A DNA stretch of 64,000 nt from an uncultured Anaerolineales bacterium (GCA_964539385.1 CAZIJC010000003.1:1503-65502), one strand, 5' to 3'; positions 10,456 to 56,079 are shown, counted from the first letter of the stretch. Program-made: numbers and translations. The notes: generated by a model from the letters alone, not told the origin.

Positions 10456-10653
10456 TCAACGGGAGCCGGCCCGTTGCTTCCTGAGTGTCTGCCGCTGCGC
10501 CTTCCTCAACTGCCGCCGCTTGCGCTCGCTTGGCTTCTCGTAATAACTGTTTCGCTTGATCTCCTTGGTGAGACCTTCCTTCTCGCACAGTTTCTTGAAG
10601 CGCTTCAGCATCTGCTCGACGGTTTCGTTACCTCTGGACCGGATCTTAAGCAT
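10456..10653 (-). CDS. rpsU: 30S ribosomal protein S21
   Basis: MLKIRSRGNETVEQMLKRFKKLCEKEGL...KRRQLRKAQRQ matches bS21; start at internal ATG 10653. Confidence 0.85.
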   Translation of the reverse strand: MLKIRSRGNETVEQMLKRFKKLCEKEGLTKEIKRNSYYEKPSERKRRQLRKAQRQTLRKQRAGSR

Positions 10654-10760
10654 GTTCCTGCCGACACTCCTTTCCGCGACCTTCTGCCGCACGTATCATC
10701 ACCCAGTATACACACACCCGGCGACAAAGCAAGGGTTTTATGCGCGCCGTGAATGCAACC

Positions 10761-10877
10761 TAGCCGCTGGCGCATCCAGGGCCTTGCGCCACATCTGTGC
10801 GGGCCGCGGCCAAGGCCGCGAGCGCGAGCACGAGAACCGCGCCCGCAAGCACAAGATTCCGCCTGCTATCGCTCATG
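10761..10877 (-). CDS. small hypothetical secreted/membrane peptide (38 aa)
   Basis: Strong RBS GGAGGCAAACC before ATG; hydrophobic NLVLAGAVLVLALAALAAA; very short, unverified. Confidence 0.25.
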
Positions 10878-11126
10878 GTTTGCCTCCAGCCGAGACCCAC
10901 AGTTCCCCTCGATCAACCTAACGGACGCGAAAGCGCGAGTGGCGCACCTTGGGCGTATGATAGCCTCGGCCGCAGGAGTTGGCGTCATCCGAGACTGCGA
11001 CAATTGCAGGGCCGTGTTCGTCTGCTTCAGGGGCCAAGGTTGCCCTCAGTGTTGGGCTCCTCCAGCGGCCCCCAGGTAGCCCCATGAAACCAACCCCAAA
11101 ATCACCGTTCTGGCTTCCCAAACCCT

Positions 11127-11143
11127 ACGTCCGATAATGAGTG
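11127..11143. repeat. prophage left attachment core: 17-bp direct repeat (XerC-arm + central region of a dif-like site)
   Basis: ACGTCCGATAATGAGTG identical to 55231-55247; sits at the left edge of the phage gene block. Confidence 0.6.
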
Positions 11144-11189
11144 CGGGGAGGTGCCGAAAAACGGACCTATGGCGGGGAGTCGATAGGTG

Positions 11190-11400
11190 GGTGGCGGGCC
11201 TTGCGCGCGCAGGCAGGGAAGGGCGGGAGTATCGAACCCCCACGCCGAGTTGGAGTCTGACCCCGACCGGCCAATGGTGATGACGGTGGGAATCTGACAA
11301 ACGCGGGGGTTCGATTTCGCCGAAATCTGGTGCATGGTTTCAGACTCCAACTCTATGCGACACCCCCAGGTTAGGCGGCTCCCAAAAGCCGCGTCAAGAA
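11190..11400. other. structured non-coding region with interleaved inverted repeats and a tRNA T-arm-like motif
   Basis: ATCGAACCCCC (11231) / GGGGGTTCGAT (11314) and GAGTTGGAGTCTGA (11247) / TCAGACTCCAACTC (11340); minus strand carries GGGGGTTCGATACTCCC; no ORF with coding character. Confidence 0.3.
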
Positions 11401-11402
11401 AA

Positions 11403-11445
11403 AAACGAAAAAAAATCCGCCGGCCTTGCTTTCGCCGGGTTTTTC
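11403..11445. terminator. bidirectional intrinsic terminator
   Basis: A8-CCGGC-(loop)-GCCGG-GTTTTT hairpin flanked by T-runs on both strands. Confidence 0.4.
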
Positions 11446-11475
11446 AGCCATAATGACATAGAAATCCTGGCATTC

Positions 11476-11898
11476 GTGGGAGTCGGAATCATGGGTAACT
11501 TGCGCATGCGTTTGCCGATGTTGTTGTCTCTGGCGGCCCTGGTGTCCGCGGTCGTGGCCCTGATCCTGGCGATTGGTGCCTGCCGGCAGCCGGCGGCCGA
11601 GGTGGTGGTTGTTGACGAGGCCGGCCGTGTTCGCGTGCGGCTCGGCGTCCTTGGCGACAACACCATTGGTCTCGGCCTGTATGACGCCAACGGGCGCCGG
11701 CGCGGTGCCTTTCATTTTGTTGAGGCCCTTGACGCGGCCAGTCTCGAGGTAAAAGGCACCGGCGCCCCGTACTCGCCTACCGTCACGGTGGCCACGGTGG
11801 GGACGGCCATGGTTTCCCTGGGCGACGAGGATGGCCGGTTCTTCGGTTTGACTCCCAACGGCCCGCAGACCTTTCTCAATCCCTTCCCGCCCCCTTAG
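11476..11898 (+). CDS. hypothetical secreted protein (prophage, attL-proximal)
   Basis: Signal-peptide-like N-terminus MRLPMLLSLAALVSAVVALILAIGAC; 140 aa. Confidence 0.45.
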   Translation: MGVGIMGNLRMRLPMLLSLAALVSAVVALILAIGACRQPAAEVVVVDEAGRVRVRLGVLGDNTIGLGLYDANGRRRGAFHFVEALDAASLEVKGTGAPYSPTVTVATVGTAMVSLGDEDGRFFGLTPNGPQTFLNPFPPP

Positions 11899-12115
11899 AC
11901 GGCGGGCGCCCTCTGGTCAGGGCGATCCCCCGTGCCGCTGCCGCGGCTCGCACGGCCTTCGCCGAGACCGACCGCCCAAATCGACGGCTGAGGTTGGCCG
12001 CGATCGCCGGGGCCTGGTAGCCGGCCGAGGCCATTCGCTTGAGCACACTGCGCGGCCGACCGCGCCGGCCAGTTGCCGTAAATTGAATCGCATCCCACCA
12101 GTTGACTGCCACCAT
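11876..12115 (-). CDS. small basic protein, paralog A of 12389-12607
   Basis: MVAVNWWDAIQFTATGRRGRP...AVRAAAAARGI is about 50% identical to the neighbouring 72-aa gene; internal ATG at 12115. Confidence 0.5.
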   Translation of the reverse strand: MVAVNWWDAIQFTATGRRGRPRSVLKRMASAGYQAPAIAANLSRRFGRSVSAKAVRAAAAARGIALTRGRPPSKGAGRD

Positions 12116-12301
12116 AGGTTCCCATTCGGCCAGGCCGTTGGCACAAATCAAGGAAAAAGGGCCAGGATGGCGCAGGACGGCCGCGAGCCCCTGGGGGATG
12201 GCCCACCATAGCCTCGCTTCACTCCGCGTGGCGTGGCGCAAGCCTGGTGGCCCAGGGCAGGGCGTGGCGCGGGGGTCACGGCCATCCTGGCGGGAGCGCG
12301 C

Positions 12302-12343
12302 AAAAAAAGGGCCGGCCCCAGGGGTGGTGGCCTGGGGCCGGCG
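12302..12343 (-). terminator. intrinsic terminator (minus strand)
   Basis: GGGCCGGCCCCA / TGGGGCCGGC stem followed on minus strand by T7. Confidence 0.5.
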
Positions 12344-12388
12344 GTTACCGTGCCGCGACAAGCGGCATCGGCCATGGTGGTCTGACGG

Positions 12389-13422: not shown

Positions 13423-13833
13423 TTACGCTTCCGCTGTCGGCCCCGGCAAATGCTTGAAGTGTTCGACCACCGTTTCGACGTAATCCGCACACCGGGCGGC
13501 GCCGGCGATCTCATCGCCCCGCATTCGCAACGGTTGTGTGTGCCGCAGCAACACGGTGGCCTCTTGTAGTGCTTTGTCGATGCGTTCTAACTGTGCCATG
13601 ATGCGCTGGCCGCCCTTGATCCCCCTGGCCGCTGCTGTTTCGCGCTCGACAAAGGCAGACACGGCCGCCTCGGCGCCCCAGGGCGACGAATCGACCAGCG
13701 TGTGCGCGGGCACCGTCGATTCGGTGCCTGGCAGGAGTTGCGCATCATCCCGGTTTGCCCGCCATCCCTTGCCTTTCGCGTCCAGCGCGACGGTCCACTC
13801 TTGCCCCCACACTTTTATGCGGAGCGTGCTCAT
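13423..13833 (-). CDS. hypothetical phage protein
   Basis: Start at internal ATG 13833 directly preceded by the repeated leader element (RBS AAAGGTGG). Confidence 0.45.
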   Translation of the reverse strand: MSTLRIKVWGQEWTVALDAKGKGWRANRDDAQLLPGTESTVPAHTLVDSSPWGAEAAVSAFVERETAAARGIKGGQRIMAQLERIDKALQEATVLLRHTQPLRMRGDEIAGAARCADYVETVVEHFKHLPGPTAEA

Positions 13834-13906
13834 AAGACACCACCTTTCTACATGGCCACCATTGGCCGGCCGGCAGGTCCGGCCCCAGGGCCAGGCCCGC
13901 CGAGGC
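13834..13906 (-). repeat. repeated intergenic leader element R1, copy 1 (truncated)
   Basis: CCACCACCTTTC..GGCCACCATTGGCCGGCCGGCAGGTCCGG...CCAGGCCCGCC shared with copies at 14815 and 15273. Confidence 0.7.
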
Positions 13907-14814
13907 TCATTCCTCAAGGTTATCTACCAGGTCGGACACGGCCGCCCAATTGTCGGCCACGCCTTGCAGGTGCTTGCGGGCCTCGGCTTCGCGGTCGAGC
14001 CCTTGCTCCCATAGGGTCTTATCGCGCTCGGCCTTGACCGCTTTGGTGATAAGGTCATCGAGCGTGGCCGGCTCAAGGGCGTCCAACTCCCAGGAATCCT
14101 CACCGTACTCGACCACGTAGCCCTCATATCGAGAATCGGTCACCTTTGCGGGGTTGGGCGGCGGTTGGTACTCGTCAACCTGGTCCATGTTCAAGGCCAG
14201 GCGGGTGAGGCGCACCGGCTCATCGAGAAATAGGTCGAGCCGGTCGCGTATATCCCTGGTCATGTCGATGCCGCTTGGGTCATGGTCGCCCAGGTGCAGC
14301 AACAAGATGCCCTGCCCCCGGCCCTGGTGCTGCTGAAACCGCCGGATGGCGGCGTCCCACATTTCGCTTTGACTCATGTAGCCGCGGCACGCCATGTAAT
14401 CGACGCGGAGACGCTTGGCAATGGTGTCCAGCACGCCGGCCAGGGCTTCCTTTTCGATCCAGACCTCGTTGGCTGCGCGGCCCACAGGTCGAGCCGGAAC
14501 TGGTCGGCCACCGCCTCGATCATGCTTTCGGGCGACCGCCAGGTCGGATAGGCTTCAAGGTTGCGCGTGCGGTCCTCAATCGCATCCCAATCCACCAGGC
14601 CGGCCAGGCGGGCGTCGGACAGGATGGCCCCCAGGCGCTTGTAGTTCCGCTGCACGTTCGGCATGAGACCGCGGGCCACGAATTGGTAATAGAGTTGCCG
14701 CAAGGTGAGGCGGTAACCCTGCCCGCGGTATTCCTCGATGATGGCGTTTGCCCGATTGATGGTCTCGAGTGTCGCCGGCTTGAAATCCTTGTCCACGTAT
14801 CGGATGCGCGGCAT
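13907..14814 (-). pseudogene. Topo VI-A/Spo11-like (mini-A type) protein: 5Y-CAP (LRQLYYQF) + Toprim (GDHDPSG), split by a frameshift near 14470-14485
   Basis: N-part ORF 14374-14814 (real ATG at 14814) and C-part ORF 13907-14485 are consecutive halves in frames offset by one nucleotide; no slippery heptamer. Confidence 0.5.
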
Positions 14815-14903
14815 ATCCCACCACCTTTCCTGGCCACCATTGGCCTGCCGGCAGGTCTGGCCCCCACGGCCAGGCCCGCCGGCGGGCCAATGGCCCGCCT
14901 GAA
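14815..14903 (-). repeat. repeated intergenic leader element R1, copy 2
   Basis: Full copy including GGGCCAATGGCCCGCC inverted half. Confidence 0.7.
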
Positions 14904-15272
14904 TCATTCGCCCATGGCCGCCCGGTTGCCCGCCTCTTGCAGTATGGCCGCTTGGGTGATTTCTTCGCAGGTAAGAACGTAGTGCGGCGCCGGCCCCCAC
15001 ACCAGGTCACCCCAATAGAGCGCCTCATGCAGCCGGACCTCGGCTTTGCGCTGGCCCGTCGGCTCATAGACGTAGACCACCCGGTCACGCCTTGGTTCGA
15101 TGCCGGCGTCACGGATGGCCGCCAGCGCCTGCCAAAGCGCTTCTGTGAGTGACCGGCCTTCGCCCGGCTCGCCGTCGCCAAGCCACTGGCCATTGACCAC
15201 CTGGGCCAACCACCCGGCGGCCTGCATTGTGCCGTACATGCAGACCTCTGCAACCACCTTGGCCTTTCGCAT
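14904..15272 (-). CDS. hypothetical phage early protein (first gene of leftward operon)
   Basis: Internal ATG at 15272 preceded by R1 copy 3; 123 aa. Confidence 0.45.
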   Translation of the reverse strand: MRKAKVVAEVCMYGTMQAAGWLAQVVNGQWLGDGEPGEGRSLTEALWQALAAIRDAGIEPRRDRVVYVYEPTGQRKAEVRLHEALYWGDLVWGPAPHYVLTCEEITQAAILQEAGNRAAMGE

Positions 15273-15360
15273 AACCCACCACCTTTCCTGGCCACCATTG
15301 GCCGGCCGGCAGGTCCGGTGATCCCCAGGCCCGCCGGCGGGCCAATGCCCGCCTGCCTCT
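15273..15360 (-). repeat. repeated intergenic leader element R1, copy 3
   Basis: Near-identical to copy 2. Confidence 0.7.
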
Positions 15361-24559: not shown

Positions 24560-25069
24560 ATGAGCACCCAATCGCACTCAGCCGCGGCTAAAGCCAAAGC
24601 CAAGGCCGACGCCGAAGCCAAGAGGGCGGCCGACGCCGACGCCGATGCCGAAGCCAAGAGGGTAGCCGAAGCCGAAGCGGACGTCGAAGCCGAAGCGGAC
24701 GCCGAAGCCAAGAGGGCGGCCGACGCCGAAGCGGACGCCGATAGAGACGAACATGCCGGGGCCGACGGGAAGCGCAGGTCGGACGATGTACCGGGGACCA
24801 CACGCGAGCCTGATGCCCCCAAGCCGGGGAGTGACGCCCCCCGGCCGGGGGCCGAGCGTGGTCAACCTGCCACCGGGGTTGCCGCCGCGACCGCCGCGGC
24901 CGGCCAACCCGCGACGTTGGAGGAGGCCGTTGAAAGCCACCTCAAACGTCACCCGACCTGCCACCGTTGGCTTGCCGTGGACATCTGCCGCCAGGCTTAC
25001 CCGGAACTCGCCGGCCTGCCGCCCACGCGGTTAAGCCGGCAGCGCGCCAAGCAACGGCAAGGCGGGTAG
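24560..25069 (+). CDS. Ala/Asp/Glu-repeat protein (scaffold-like), hypothetical
   Basis: Tandem (ADAEAKRAAD)-like repeats encoded by DNA tandem repeat 24590-24750. Confidence 0.45.
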   Translation: MSTQSHSAAAKAKAKADAEAKRAADADADAEAKRVAEAEADVEAEADAEAKRAADAEADADRDEHAGADGKRRSDDVPGTTREPDAPKPGSDAPRPGAERGQPATGVAAATAAAGQPATLEEAVESHLKRHPTCHRWLAVDICRQAYPELAGLPPTRLSRQRAKQRQGG

Positions 25070-51374: not shown

Positions 51375-52276
51375 TTTTGTCCACCGCCTTTCGTACTGAA
51401 TGACCAGGCATCGAGTTGGTGGGCCTCACGCAACTCAAGAAACCCCCGGTCACCCAGGTCGATGACCAGGCAGTCGTTTTTGTAAACCATCGTGCCGAGG
51501 AGGCCGTCGGCCTTGCGCCGGGCAGAGACCAAGCCATGGGCCTTGAGGTCGGCGAGTCTGCGGTACAGGGCCTCTTGCTGCTGAAGATGCCAGGTGGCGG
51601 CAAACCGGAGCACGTCGGCCGTAAGGTTTTGGTGGCCCACGTCGTGCAGCGGTTTGGCGTCGATGTAGGCTGCCAGGACGTGCTCGGCGTAGGTACCGCG
51701 TGATAGGTCGCCGATGATCCGGGCCACCACGTTTTCACGGCCTTGGCGTGGGCGTTGCCTTTCGTGGAAAAGAAGCGCGAGCGACTGCCACCGCTGCATG
51801 GTGGGAGTTGTCGGGCGGGCAGGGGCACTCTTCCCTGTTGATATTCCGTGTTCTGATTCCGGTGTGTTTTCCACACCGTTTGGGGGTATGGTTTTCATAC
51901 CGTTTGCCCCATGATTTTCATACCGTTTCGGCGGATTAAAGGGTCCGCTTTCCACACCCTTTGCACCGGCCGGCTCGACGGTGGTTTCCTGGGGATAAGC
52001 CACCCAATAGTGGTGCGTGCGCCGCCGGCCGCCGCGCGACCACTCGACCACCAACAGGCCAAGGCCGACCAGGCGGTCGATGGCCTGCCGCGCCGCCTGT
52101 TTGCCGATGCCCAGGTCGGCCGCCATCGACTCGACGCCGGGCCATGCCGCCTCACCCTCGGCGCCCTGGCGATAGGCCACCAAGGCCCACACCAACTTGG
52201 CCGAGGCCGGCAGGTCACGGCGCCGGGCGAGCCACAAGGGCACCGCGAGCCAGTTGGTCGGGTCGTCTCGGCTCAT
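51371..52276 (-). CDS. replication initiator (lambda O-like) with N-terminal winged-helix and internal iterons
   Basis: N-terminal HTH-like LPASAKLVWALVAY...IGKQAARQAIDRLVGLGLL; four direct repeats inside the ORF. Confidence 0.55.
   Translation of the reverse strand: MSRDDPTNWLAVPLWLARRRDLPASAKLVWALVAYRQGAEGEAAWPGVESMAADLGIGKQAARQAIDRLVGLGLLVVEWSRGGRRRTHHYWVAYPQETTVEPAGAKGVESGPFNPPKRYENHGANGMKTIPPNGVENTPESEHGISTGKSAPARPTTPTMQRWQSLALLFHERQRPRQGRENVVARIIGDLSRGTYAEHVLAAYIDAKPLHDVGHQNLTADVLRFAATWHLQQQEALYRRLADLKAHGLVSARRKADGLLGTMVYKNDCLVIDLGDRGFLELREAHQLDAWSFSTKGGGQK
51867..51963. repeat. iteron array (candidate phage origin of replication)
   Basis: Four copies of TTT(T/C)CA(C/T)ACC(G/C)TTTG at 51867, 51891, 51914, 51948. 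Confidence 0.6.
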
Positions 52277-54694: not shown

Positions 54695-54967
54695 TTAGGC
54701 TGCCGGTTTGAGCGGATGTCGGAAAGGCCGGCTGGCCGGCGGCCGGCTCGGCGCGAGCCGCACCGGCGCCGGTTGCCTGCTGCAAAGTTCTCGGTGATAG
54801 TCGCCAACCGTGTCGCGGGCCTGATCCAGGGCCGTCTCGCGGGCCATACACCGTGGACAGACCAGGGCTACCAGCGCAGTTCCGTATGGCGCCGAGGTAC
54901 GCCAAGTGCCGGGCAGGACGTGTTCGTGCCAGTGGCCGCAGACGTGTTTGAGATTTTTTGCCACCAT
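54695..54967 (-). CDS. small Cys/His-rich protein, own transcription unit next to attR
   Basis: CGHWHEH...CPRC; followed by two terminators; last prophage gene. Confidence 0.4.
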   Translation of the reverse strand: MVAKNLKHVCGHWHEHVLPGTWRTSAPYGTALVALVCPRCMARETALDQARDTVGDYHRELCSRQPAPVRLAPSRPPASRPFRHPLKPAA

Positions 54968-55230: not shown

Positions 55231-55258
55231 ACGTCCGATAATGAGTGTTATGTTGCGC
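55231..55258. other. dif-like site / prophage right attachment site
   Basis: ACGTCCGATAA-TGAGTG-TTATGTTGCGC: 11-6-11 layout with ATAA and TTATG inner arms as in dif sites; first 17 bp repeated at 11127. Confidence 0.5.
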
Positions 55259-55531: not shown

Positions 55532-56079
55532 CTACTCGGAGTCGATGAGGTCGTCGTCGGAGATCTCGAGGACGTCGTCTTTGTGTGGCCCGCCGCCGGC
55601 GAGGCGTTCGAGACTGGCAAGGATGTCATCCTTGCCGCCTTTCTTCCCGCTCGCAGGCACGGGCCCTTTGGGTTTGGGTGCCTTGGGTTTGGGTGCCTTG
55701 GGTTTGGGTGCCTTGGGCTTGGGTGCCTTGGGTTTGGGTGCGGGCGCCGGCTTCGCGGGAGCGGCCGCCTGGGCGGGCTTTTTGCGGACGCCGTCGATCT
55801 CGACGACAAACGTCAGTGGCCCGATGCGCACCTCGTCGCCGGCTTCAAGGGTCTCTTCCTGTATCTTGGCGCCGTTGACGCATGTGCCGTTGCCGCTTCC
55901 CTTGTCGCGGATGGCGAGGTGGGCCTCACCGTTGACGATCTCGCAGTGGTGGCGTGAGACGCGTGTTGACGCGATGATTAGATCGCTGTCCTCGGCGCGC
56001 CCAACTGTGAGCGTGCCGGAAGGAATCTCCACCTGCTTCCCTTTAGGATTCCCTTTTATGAGGTGGAGTTTGGCTTCCA
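55532..56079 (-). CDS. FHA domain protein with C-terminal (KAPKP)n repeat
   Basis: FHA core TLTVGRAEDSDLII...VSRHHCEI...IRDKGSGNGTCVNG; 15-bp tandem DNA repeat x5 at 55665-55745. Confidence 0.7.

Follow-up and report, generated by a model that had tools for sequence, protein, structure and literature searches.

Interleaved inverted repeats beside the dif-type attachment site of a tailed prophage may mark an antisense RNA

The DNA analysed here is a stretch of 64,000 nucleotides (CAZIJC010000003.1:1503-65502), deposited under an uncultured Anaerolineales bacterium and referred to below as the window. It carries a 44-kb prophage that encodes a gpA-type large terminase with ATPase and nuclease domains and a lambda-family portal, together with a ParB-N protein, a methyltransferase and an HTH_36 replication protein. 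Host rpsU and ABC-transporter genes flank the prophage on the left, FHA and PilM genes on the right. Just inside its left end, next to the attachment site attL, lies a non-coding region (11190-11400) with two interleaved pairs of inverted repeats, A/A' and B/B'. We propose, at a probability of roughly 35%, that these repeats mark a small structured RNA of the minus strand, which may be antisense to the leaders of three phage genes. The features of the region and of its proposed targets are collected in Table 1.

Table 1. Positions of the repeats, predicted RNA elements, attachment site, signals and leader units, counted from the first base of the window.
Feature	Position	Strand	Remarks
attL core	11127-11143	+	XerC-side arm ACGTCCGATAA and central region TGAGTG; exact repeat at 55231-55247 (attR)
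Degenerate XerD-side arm	11144-11154	+	CGGGGAGGTGC; phage-derived, first phage base after the crossover
Outer GGGG-TCGAT motif copy	11174-11186	+	GGGGAGTCGATAG; pairs with 11354-11367 in the minus-strand fold of 11150-11367
Candidate structured RNA core	11225-11367	-	Three helices (P1-P3), inner stem, apical loop
T-arm-like GGGGG-TTCGATA-CTCCC	11225-11241	-	In the MFE fold, 3' strands of P1 (11225-11233) and P3; no hairpin
Inverted-repeat arm A	11231-11244	none	ATCGAACCCCCACG; repeat search
Diverged inverted copy of the D3 leader unit	11243-11305	+	Alignment, nhmmer, shared 13-mer
Inverted-repeat arm B	11247-11260	none	GAGTTGGAGTCTGA; inside the leader-like core
Apical heptaloop UCACCAU	11274-11280	-	Unpaired probability at least 0.98 in 143-nt and 218-nt contexts
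Inverted-repeat arm A'	11302-11315	none	CGCGGGGGTTCGAT; A and A' bracket the leader-like core
Inverted-repeat arm B'	11340-11353	none	TCAGACTCCAACTC; repeat search
Helix P3	11312-11300 with 11246-11234	-	Long hairpin closed by A'/A, inner stem, heptaloop
Helix P2	11351-11341 with 11329-11319	-	MFE fold; 4 G.U among 11 pairs
Helix P1	11367-11359 with 11233-11225	-	MFE fold
Extra motif copy	11358-11367		CGACACCCCC; absent from the first-pass annotation
Putative promoter of the minus-strand RNA	11368-11397	-	TTGACG (11397-11392), 18-nt spacer, TAACCT (11373-11368); hand-picked
A/T tract	11397-11419	none	AGAAAAAAACGAAAAAAAATCCG; G+C drops to 0.43-0.52 in a 66% G+C genome
Putative promoter of the lipoprotein gene	11426-11454	+	TTGCTT, 17-nt spacer, CATAAT; hand-picked
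Orphan lipoprotein gene (LAIGAC lipobox)	11491-11898	+	First phage gene after the element
Leader repeat D3a	13825-13925	-	5' of a 136-aa gene, start 13833; proposed target
Leader repeat D3b	14809-14905	-	5' of a 146-aa gene, start 14814; proposed target
Leader repeat D3c	15265-15358	-	5' of a 122-aa gene, start 15272; proposed target

A repeat search recovered both pairs, which the first-pass annotation had described as perfect inverted repeats of 11 and 14 bp in interleaved order. The arms of B/B' (GAGTTGGAGTCTGA/TCAGACTCCAACTC) are 14 nt long, 100% complementary and 79 nt apart. Those of A/A' (ATCGAACCCCCACG/CGCGGGGGTTCGAT) span 14 nt at 93%, with one mismatch, and include a perfect 11-nt core (ATCGAACCCCC/GGGGGTTCGAT). 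The arms follow each other in the order A, B, A', B', with 2 bases separating A from B. Within the whole window, B/B' exceeds in length every other perfect inverted repeat whose spacer is at most 150 nt, and A/A' and B/B' form the only interleaved pair. Among 100 simulated first-order Markov sequences of the same size as the window, 11% held an inverted repeat of at least 14 bp and 2% an interleaved pair of repeats of at least 11 bp. The repeat feature is real and non-random at roughly the 1-2% level; it is moderately, not overwhelmingly, unlikely by chance. Degenerate direct copies of B lie at 11286-11298 and 11319-11329, and a GGGGGTTCGAT-like motif occurs four times between 11174 and 11367, in alternating orientation and with a spacing of 48-78 bp. 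Arm B' is found nowhere else in the window, nor in the fetched loci. A miniature inverted-repeat transposable element was rejected: neither repeat pair shows a target duplication, and no further copies were found in the window or in 26 fetched loci, besides those of the same prophage.

The lack of coding character stated in the first-pass annotation was borne out. Between 10693 and 11490 the frame plot of G+C content at third codon positions (GC3) is flat and JGI called no gene, and about 350 bp of non-coding DNA surround the interleaved arms. A hidden gene spanning attP was ruled out, as no coding-like open reading frame (ORF) was found across the reconstructed attP junction. The A/T tract sits between two divergent promoter-like sites. 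The interleaved order had also been read as a pseudoknot-like topology, which fails on geometry: with 2 bases between them, the two 14-bp helices of an H-type pseudoknot cannot form together. Arms 57-79 nt apart are moreover unlikely to extrude as cruciforms in duplex DNA, so single-stranded RNA is the natural substrate of the repeats.

Folded as RNA, the minus strand of 11225-11370 reaches a minimum free energy (MFE) of -64.6 kcal/mol, and the centroid structure is nearly identical. None of 200 shuffles folds as well (z -3.72; z -4.7 in a second run). The plus strand of the same interval reaches -54.4 kcal/mol, with z of -1.44 and -1.8 in two runs. In a scan of the entire window with 146-nt segments, 0.2-1% of the segment-strands fold as well and 1.6% of the segments are as strand-asymmetric; the neighbouring minus-strand segments across 11176-11421 all have z between -1.9 and -3.5. 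The fold signal depends on G.U pairs, as expected for RNA, since z is only -1.3 under DNA parameters. On the minus strand, the A:A' conformer is favoured over B:B' by 3-8 kcal/mol. In the predicted B:B' conformer, the T-arm-like hairpin is present and the antisense domain is partly covered by the 5' portion of the RNA. The two conformers are alternatives, because both 14-bp helices cannot form together.

What this RNA might pair with is suggested by a second repeat family. A whole-window search returned a 50-nt repeat, which belongs to a hairpin-plus-ribosome-binding-site (RBS) unit of about 95 nt, termed D3, located before three leftward phage genes. The core of the candidate RNA is a diverged inverted copy of this unit. 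Local alignments of 11243-11305 to the leader units score 36-40 (500 shuffles: mean 20.1, s.d. 4.0, maximum 33), the segment is the best non-self nhmmer match of the D3 profile in the window (E 0.036), and it shares an exact 13-mer with 13857-13869 and 15293-15305. Because the core is an inverted copy of their leader repeat, an RNA read from the minus strand would be antisense to the three leaders. Targets were scanned with 24-nt windows of the RNA against 63 gene starts, full-length duplex folding having given inflated energies. The three repeat-bearing genes rank first to third, at -43.2, -43.2 and -37.8 kcal/mol (mean -27.0, s.d. 4.6), and one of 60 shuffled RNAs performed equally well. The full duplexes comprise 39-45 pairs from about -55 to +5, across the RBS and the start codon. 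In the target leaders, the AUGGUG complementary to the loop UCACCAU is predicted to be single-stranded between hairpins, a modelled geometry that suits loop-initiated pairing.

Each D3 unit fills the short gap before its gene and consists of a long G+C-rich hairpin, the single-stranded AUGGUG, and then the RBS and start codon. Its own role is possibly that of an RNase processing site, an attenuator or an operator. Two overlapping minus-strand ORFs (13907-14434 and 14374-14814) match the N-terminal (4-117) and C-terminal (131-301) parts of phrog_6247, which is annotated as a DNA topoisomerase; two of the proposed target ORFs together match it, and a frameshift, a programmed shift or a split gene could be behind the arrangement.

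We postulate an RNA gene at the left prophage end, on the minus strand, that would run from roughly 11367 to at least 11225. The RNA would fold as a three-helix body, in which the long hairpin closed by A'/A encloses the antisense copy of the leader element. The free loop UCACCAU would nucleate pairing with the single-stranded AUGGUG of each leader. From there the duplex may spread over about 40 bp, from -55 to +5, to cover the RBS and start codon of the genes at 13833, 14814 and 15272, where it would block translation and/or create a substrate for a double-strand RNase. B/B' would represent the other, incompatible fold, with the 5' portion of the RNA paired to a stretch of the antisense domain. 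The interleaved order would thus be explained by two alternative conformers, not by a pseudoknot. A stronger version, in which a conformationally switchable RNA beside attP uses its exposed loop and 40-nt antisense domain to silence the three leftward genes at their repeated leaders and B/B' serves as its internal 'off' state, is doubtful. Among the options raised in the first-pass annotation, a non-coding RNA is favoured by the strand-specific fold and the leader complementarity; no relatives were found to confirm it.

Our confidence in the antisense RNA is modest, because it is read from one sequence and several results weigh against it. The leader homology is borderline (E 0.036). The terminator scan found no intrinsic terminator after the structure, and the promoter scan called neither of the hand-picked sites. 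A transcript starting about 7 nt after TAACCT would drop the 5' G-run of helix P1. The substitutions, which are few, lack a clear wobble bias (2-3 preserving vs 0-1 disrupting transitions, 2-7 transversions). About 3% of the segments in this G+C-rich sequence reach z below -3, and in the longer context of 11150-11370 both strands fold about equally (-89 vs -92 kcal/mol). The region occurs in seven contigs, all 100% identical over 10600-11500, and no homologue of the element was found by DNA patterns in viral contigs or by blastn in phages. Finally, a decayed inverted duplicate of the leader would show equal complementarity.

The wider search for relatives gave a similar picture. Terminase scans of genomes and viral contigs found no relative of the phage. 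The relatives of its DUF6166 protein are at most 50% identical and lie in unrelated contexts, and those of its DUF4031-like protein are about 50% identical over the N-terminal half only. Two pattern scans of metagenome contigs came back empty: even the prophage's own JGI contig Ga0309839_1000176, which carries both patterns, was missing. These negatives carry little weight, because the collection apparently lacks the source contig. The lysogen's source samples are JGI 3300028837 and 3300008516/7 (runs SRR3095933, SRR3085416 and SRR3089646).

Non-functional debris is a possible account, if on the unlikely side. An inverted duplicate of the leader repeat and local duplications in the cargo region by attP would be decaying, with the hairpins and the complementarity as by-products. 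This fits the homology of the core to the leader repeat, and it fits a copy that is broken as a sense element, with a degenerate second hairpin arm, CTG at the start position and no more than a 26-codon ORF behind it. It also agrees with the lack of a significant substitution bias toward pair-preserving changes and with the roughly 2% of random 64-kb sequences that hold interleaved repeats of this size. The neighbour is an orphan cargo gene, and the cargo regions beside attP of Xer-exploiting phages are hypervariable (PMC12715192). Decay leaves three things unexplained, however: the perfect match of A/A' and B/B' over 11-14 bp, the strand-specific best fold with its reliance on G.U pairs, and the position of the most conserved 13-22 nt of the copy, exactly in and beside the exposed apical loop. 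If the region were only such a decayed duplication, it would be ordinary.

The same short sequences could instead act at the DNA level. A phage regulator would bind the 13-mer CACCATTGGCCGG and the GGGGGTTCGAT copies; it could impose an orientation-dependent block on transcription, for example on host read-in over attL, or govern both divergent promoters. Four copies of the 13-mer exist at one mismatch or fewer, always in the left arm of the phage: three precede leftward genes and one lies inverted here, matching rightward transcription that enters from attL. At two mismatches or fewer there are 12 matches against 4.8 expected. The alternating GGGGGTTCGAT-like copies between 11174 and 11367, and a position 30-200 bp from two promoter-like sites, point the same way. 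We nevertheless regard an operator as quite unlikely. The whole unit of about 95 nt is conserved in the three leaders, not the 13-mer alone; arms 57-79 bp apart would be an unusual operator geometry; neither the strand asymmetry of the RNA fold nor the fact that DNA parameters abolish it is explained; and no DNA-binding regulator was identified for these sites.

Precedents exist for small regulatory RNAs, both beside recombination sites and within the control regions of phages. The c4 RNA of P1 and P7 and the CI RNA of P4 are small structured phage RNAs that pair in trans with repeated short leader sequences of a phage operon and so regulate how it is expressed. They are the nearest functional analogues (Rfam C4, RF01695), and the likeness lies in one RNA domain that is complementary to three repeated leaders. 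The RF01695 covariance model gave no match at its gathering score, nor at E of at most 10 in 10800-11600. The complementarity here extends over about 40 bp, as opposed to two short boxes in c4 and CI. The candidate, known from its DNA alone, would also be encoded 2-4 kb from its targets at the prophage end and not within the controlled leader. Lambda OOP and P22 sar are short cis-encoded phage RNAs that silence by pairing across a ribosome-binding region. Each of these is made from the strand opposite its own target, with perfect complementarity, whereas the RNA considered here would act in trans on three diverged copies. A further likeness is to Rcd, a small regulatory RNA with a predicted secondary structure that is encoded within the ColE1 Xer site cer (PMC4393325). 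Both have a promoter inside or beside an Xer recombination site (PMC4393325), a putative one in our case. Rcd differs in that it is part of cer proper, is triggered by plasmid multimers and has a protein, tryptophanase, as its target; the candidate is found on the XerD side, about 90-220 bp away from the core, phage mRNAs are its proposed targets, and the two share no sequence similarity.

If the antisense RNA is confirmed, the region would hold an RNA control circuit of the P1 c4 or P4 CI type that is unrelated to these in sequence. To our knowledge, phage regulation is essentially unstudied in the host phylum. The RNA would be a case of orphan trans-acting antisense control in a temperate phage of Planctomycetota, with a clear target set and a built-in alternative fold, and would show what can fill the 'integrase slot' when a tailed phage makes use of its host's Xer system.

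The first-pass annotation had further pointed to a T-arm, possibly of a remnant tRNA-like element. The sequence GGGGGTTCGATACTCCC is indeed present on the minus strand (11241 to 11225), where it allows a 5-bp stem with a T-loop-like loop of 7 nt to be drawn, and a weaker motif of similar type lies at 11174-11186; in the MFE fold, however, no such hairpin forms, and forcing it costs about 10 kcal/mol in the 146-nt RNA. ARAGORN reported no tRNA or tmRNA gene in the window at default settings and nothing at -ps, ps80 or ps90 with introns. At ps70 it returned only implausible models, including a 485-nt 'permuted' tmRNA that extends across host DNA, attL and phage, with an unidentified tag, and is an artefact. 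Rfam gave no match at E of at most 10 on 10800-11600, including the tRNA, tmRNA, C4 and CRISPR-DR families. The 20-mer of T-arm plus acceptor (GGGGGTTCGATACTCCCGCC) has no exact match in 185,579 species genomes, and the 17-mer GGGGGTTCGATACTCCC occurs once in IMG/VR, on an unrelated AT-rich contig that carries no tRNA call. The upstream bases cannot form an anticodon arm, and the acceptor strands described before as missing are missing in fact, no complementary strand being drawable. On these grounds a tRNA or tmRNA gene, pseudogene or 3'-end remnant, for example the relic of an earlier tRNA-targeting att site, was rejected as extremely improbable. Two lesser resemblances were discarded as well: a solitary CRISPR-repeat-like unit on the minus strand (GTCGC...CTGAAAC), which has no Rfam CRISPR-DR match and belongs to no array, and GGTTCGATAC, whose 7/9 match to a XerC arm is expected by chance.

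The ends of the prophage were fixed by comparison with empty sites. An exact look-up of the S21 protein led to contigs of the same and of related Phycisphaerae-like bacteria. In the empty contigs, rpsU and the FHA gene are 450-750 bp apart and no prophage separates them. Against the closest of these (L007, 97-99% identical by blastn), the left flank extends as far as 11139-11143 and the right flank begins at 55231, and because this comparison sets the prophage ends, the repeats lie inside the mobile element. Fifteen related contigs with empty sites (L007, L008, L010-L016, L027-L032) read ACGTCCGATAA-TGTATG-TTATGTTGCGC, a conserved 28 bp of canonical dif layout in a diverging spacer. attL (11127-11154) reads ACGTCCGATAA-TGAGTG-CGGGGAGGTGC, and attR (55231-55258) reads ACGTCCGATAA-TGAGTG-TTATGTTGCGC, so that attR, on the right, restores a functional dif. 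The attL of a dif-inserted element, as annotated at first pass, does adjoin the region: its 17-bp core is repeated at attR, and empty sites exist. The crossover is 90-220 bp away from the repeats, which stand on the same side of it as the degenerate XerD-type arm. The integrase slot was likewise empty on inspection, as no recombinase domain was detected in any phage ORF, and no XafT/DUF3653-like protein was found among the phage proteins. The 15 further rpsU contigs are all empty at this dif. None of the six listed contigs with the gene beside attR links it to the left end, as a circular or excised form would; wherever such a contig extends to the junction, it is arranged as in the lysogen. 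Host-left and phage-left DNA resemble each other at chance level only, so that no trace of a tandem element is seen there. The Xer-exploiting phages described are filamentous, satellite or double-jelly-roll phages (PMC12715192), so a tailed dif-integrated phage looks unusual.

The central region TGAGTG stands at both junctions (11138-11143 and 55242-55247), as against TGTATG in the empty sites (L007 5503-5525; L014 has TGCATG). Had there been one exchange on the XerC or XerD side, or had a heteroduplex been replicated, one junction should still show the host central region. The double TGAGTG may stem from repeated excision and re-integration or from a host polymorphism.

Given this att site, the repeats might aid Xer recombination itself, either as a folded single strand like that of CTX-phi or as accessory DNA like that of cer or psi. 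The region begins about 90 bp from the crossover core, and an attP that has no recognisable XerD arm, in a phage with neither an integrase nor a XafT-like protein, may need an extra factor. With CTX-phi, the region shares inverted repeats beside a dif-like att site of an integrase-less element. CTX-phi has two inverted dif-like sites about 90 nt apart, which make up the forked hairpin attP1/attP2, and a single-stranded genome; here there is neither. No second dif- or attP-like site was found in either orientation within 350-530 bp of either junction, where the best matches (9-10/17 to the 17-mer, 13-15/28 to the 28-mer) are at or below shuffle expectation. The phage packages double-stranded DNA, as its terminase gpA and portal indicate. 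As single-stranded DNA, neither strand folds better than shuffled sequences do (z -1.3). Crossover takes place in a plain 17-bp duplex core, at a distance of about 90 bp from the repeats. The folded attP of Xer-dependent phages, put forward in the first-pass annotation, was rejected on this evidence. The region also lies on the XerD side, whereas cer-type accessory DNA lies on the XerC side.

The attP resembles more closely that of TLC-phi, an integrative mobile element that exploits Xer (IMEX), in that a 17-bp XerC arm plus central region is common with dif, the XerD arm is degenerate and dif is regenerated at the right (PMC9226527, PMC12715192). Sequence beyond attP is not needed by TLC-phi in vitro (PMC9226527), which argues further against a recombination role; we consider such a role very improbable. 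The present phage differs from the TLC-phi type in that it encodes no XafT/DUF3653-like protein and is a 44-kb tailed phage, not a filamentous, satellite or double-jelly-roll one, and the structured region has no counterpart described for TLC-phi. Whatever the function of the repeats, the tRNA-remnant and CTX-like folded-attP readings are removed and the position of the region within the mobile element is fixed precisely.

The putative promoter of the minus-strand RNA (TTGACG-18-TAACCT) lies directly downstream of the T-rich tract. On the other side, an RBS (GGGAG, 11478-11482) precedes the lipoprotein gene, whose product has only identical copies among 5.8 billion proteins. Between this gene and the first leftward gene, a further 490 bp or so (11899-12388) are free of a coding signature.

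At the opposite end of the prophage, the first gene inside attR is a 90-aa ORF on the minus strand (54695-54967) with CxxH...CPRC motifs and a strong RBS. It has no Pfam or PHROG match; a promoter-like TTGACT-16-TAGACT (55180-55153) precedes it, and the 177-aa DUF4031-like protein comes next. From its position, the ORF is a candidate recombination or regulatory factor. Within the HTH_36 replication-protein gene lie four 22-nt iterons (GGTGTGTTTTCCACACCGTTTG-like; 51861-51965) at 23-31 bp spacing, which are likely the phage origin. The repeats at 11190-11400 were rejected as a replication origin, with copies 48-78 bp apart in alternating orientation and classical iterons at this other site. In-frame tandem repeats occur at 24580-24759 (18-nt period), in an ORF of the phage structural region, and at 55661-55741 (15-nt period, PNPRH-like), in an ORF that overlaps the host FHA-gene region. 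A repeat family of 46-52 nt (85-94% identical) is present near gene starts in the leftward block of the right arm, at 44288-44333/44898-44943 and 44860-44911/45505-45556.

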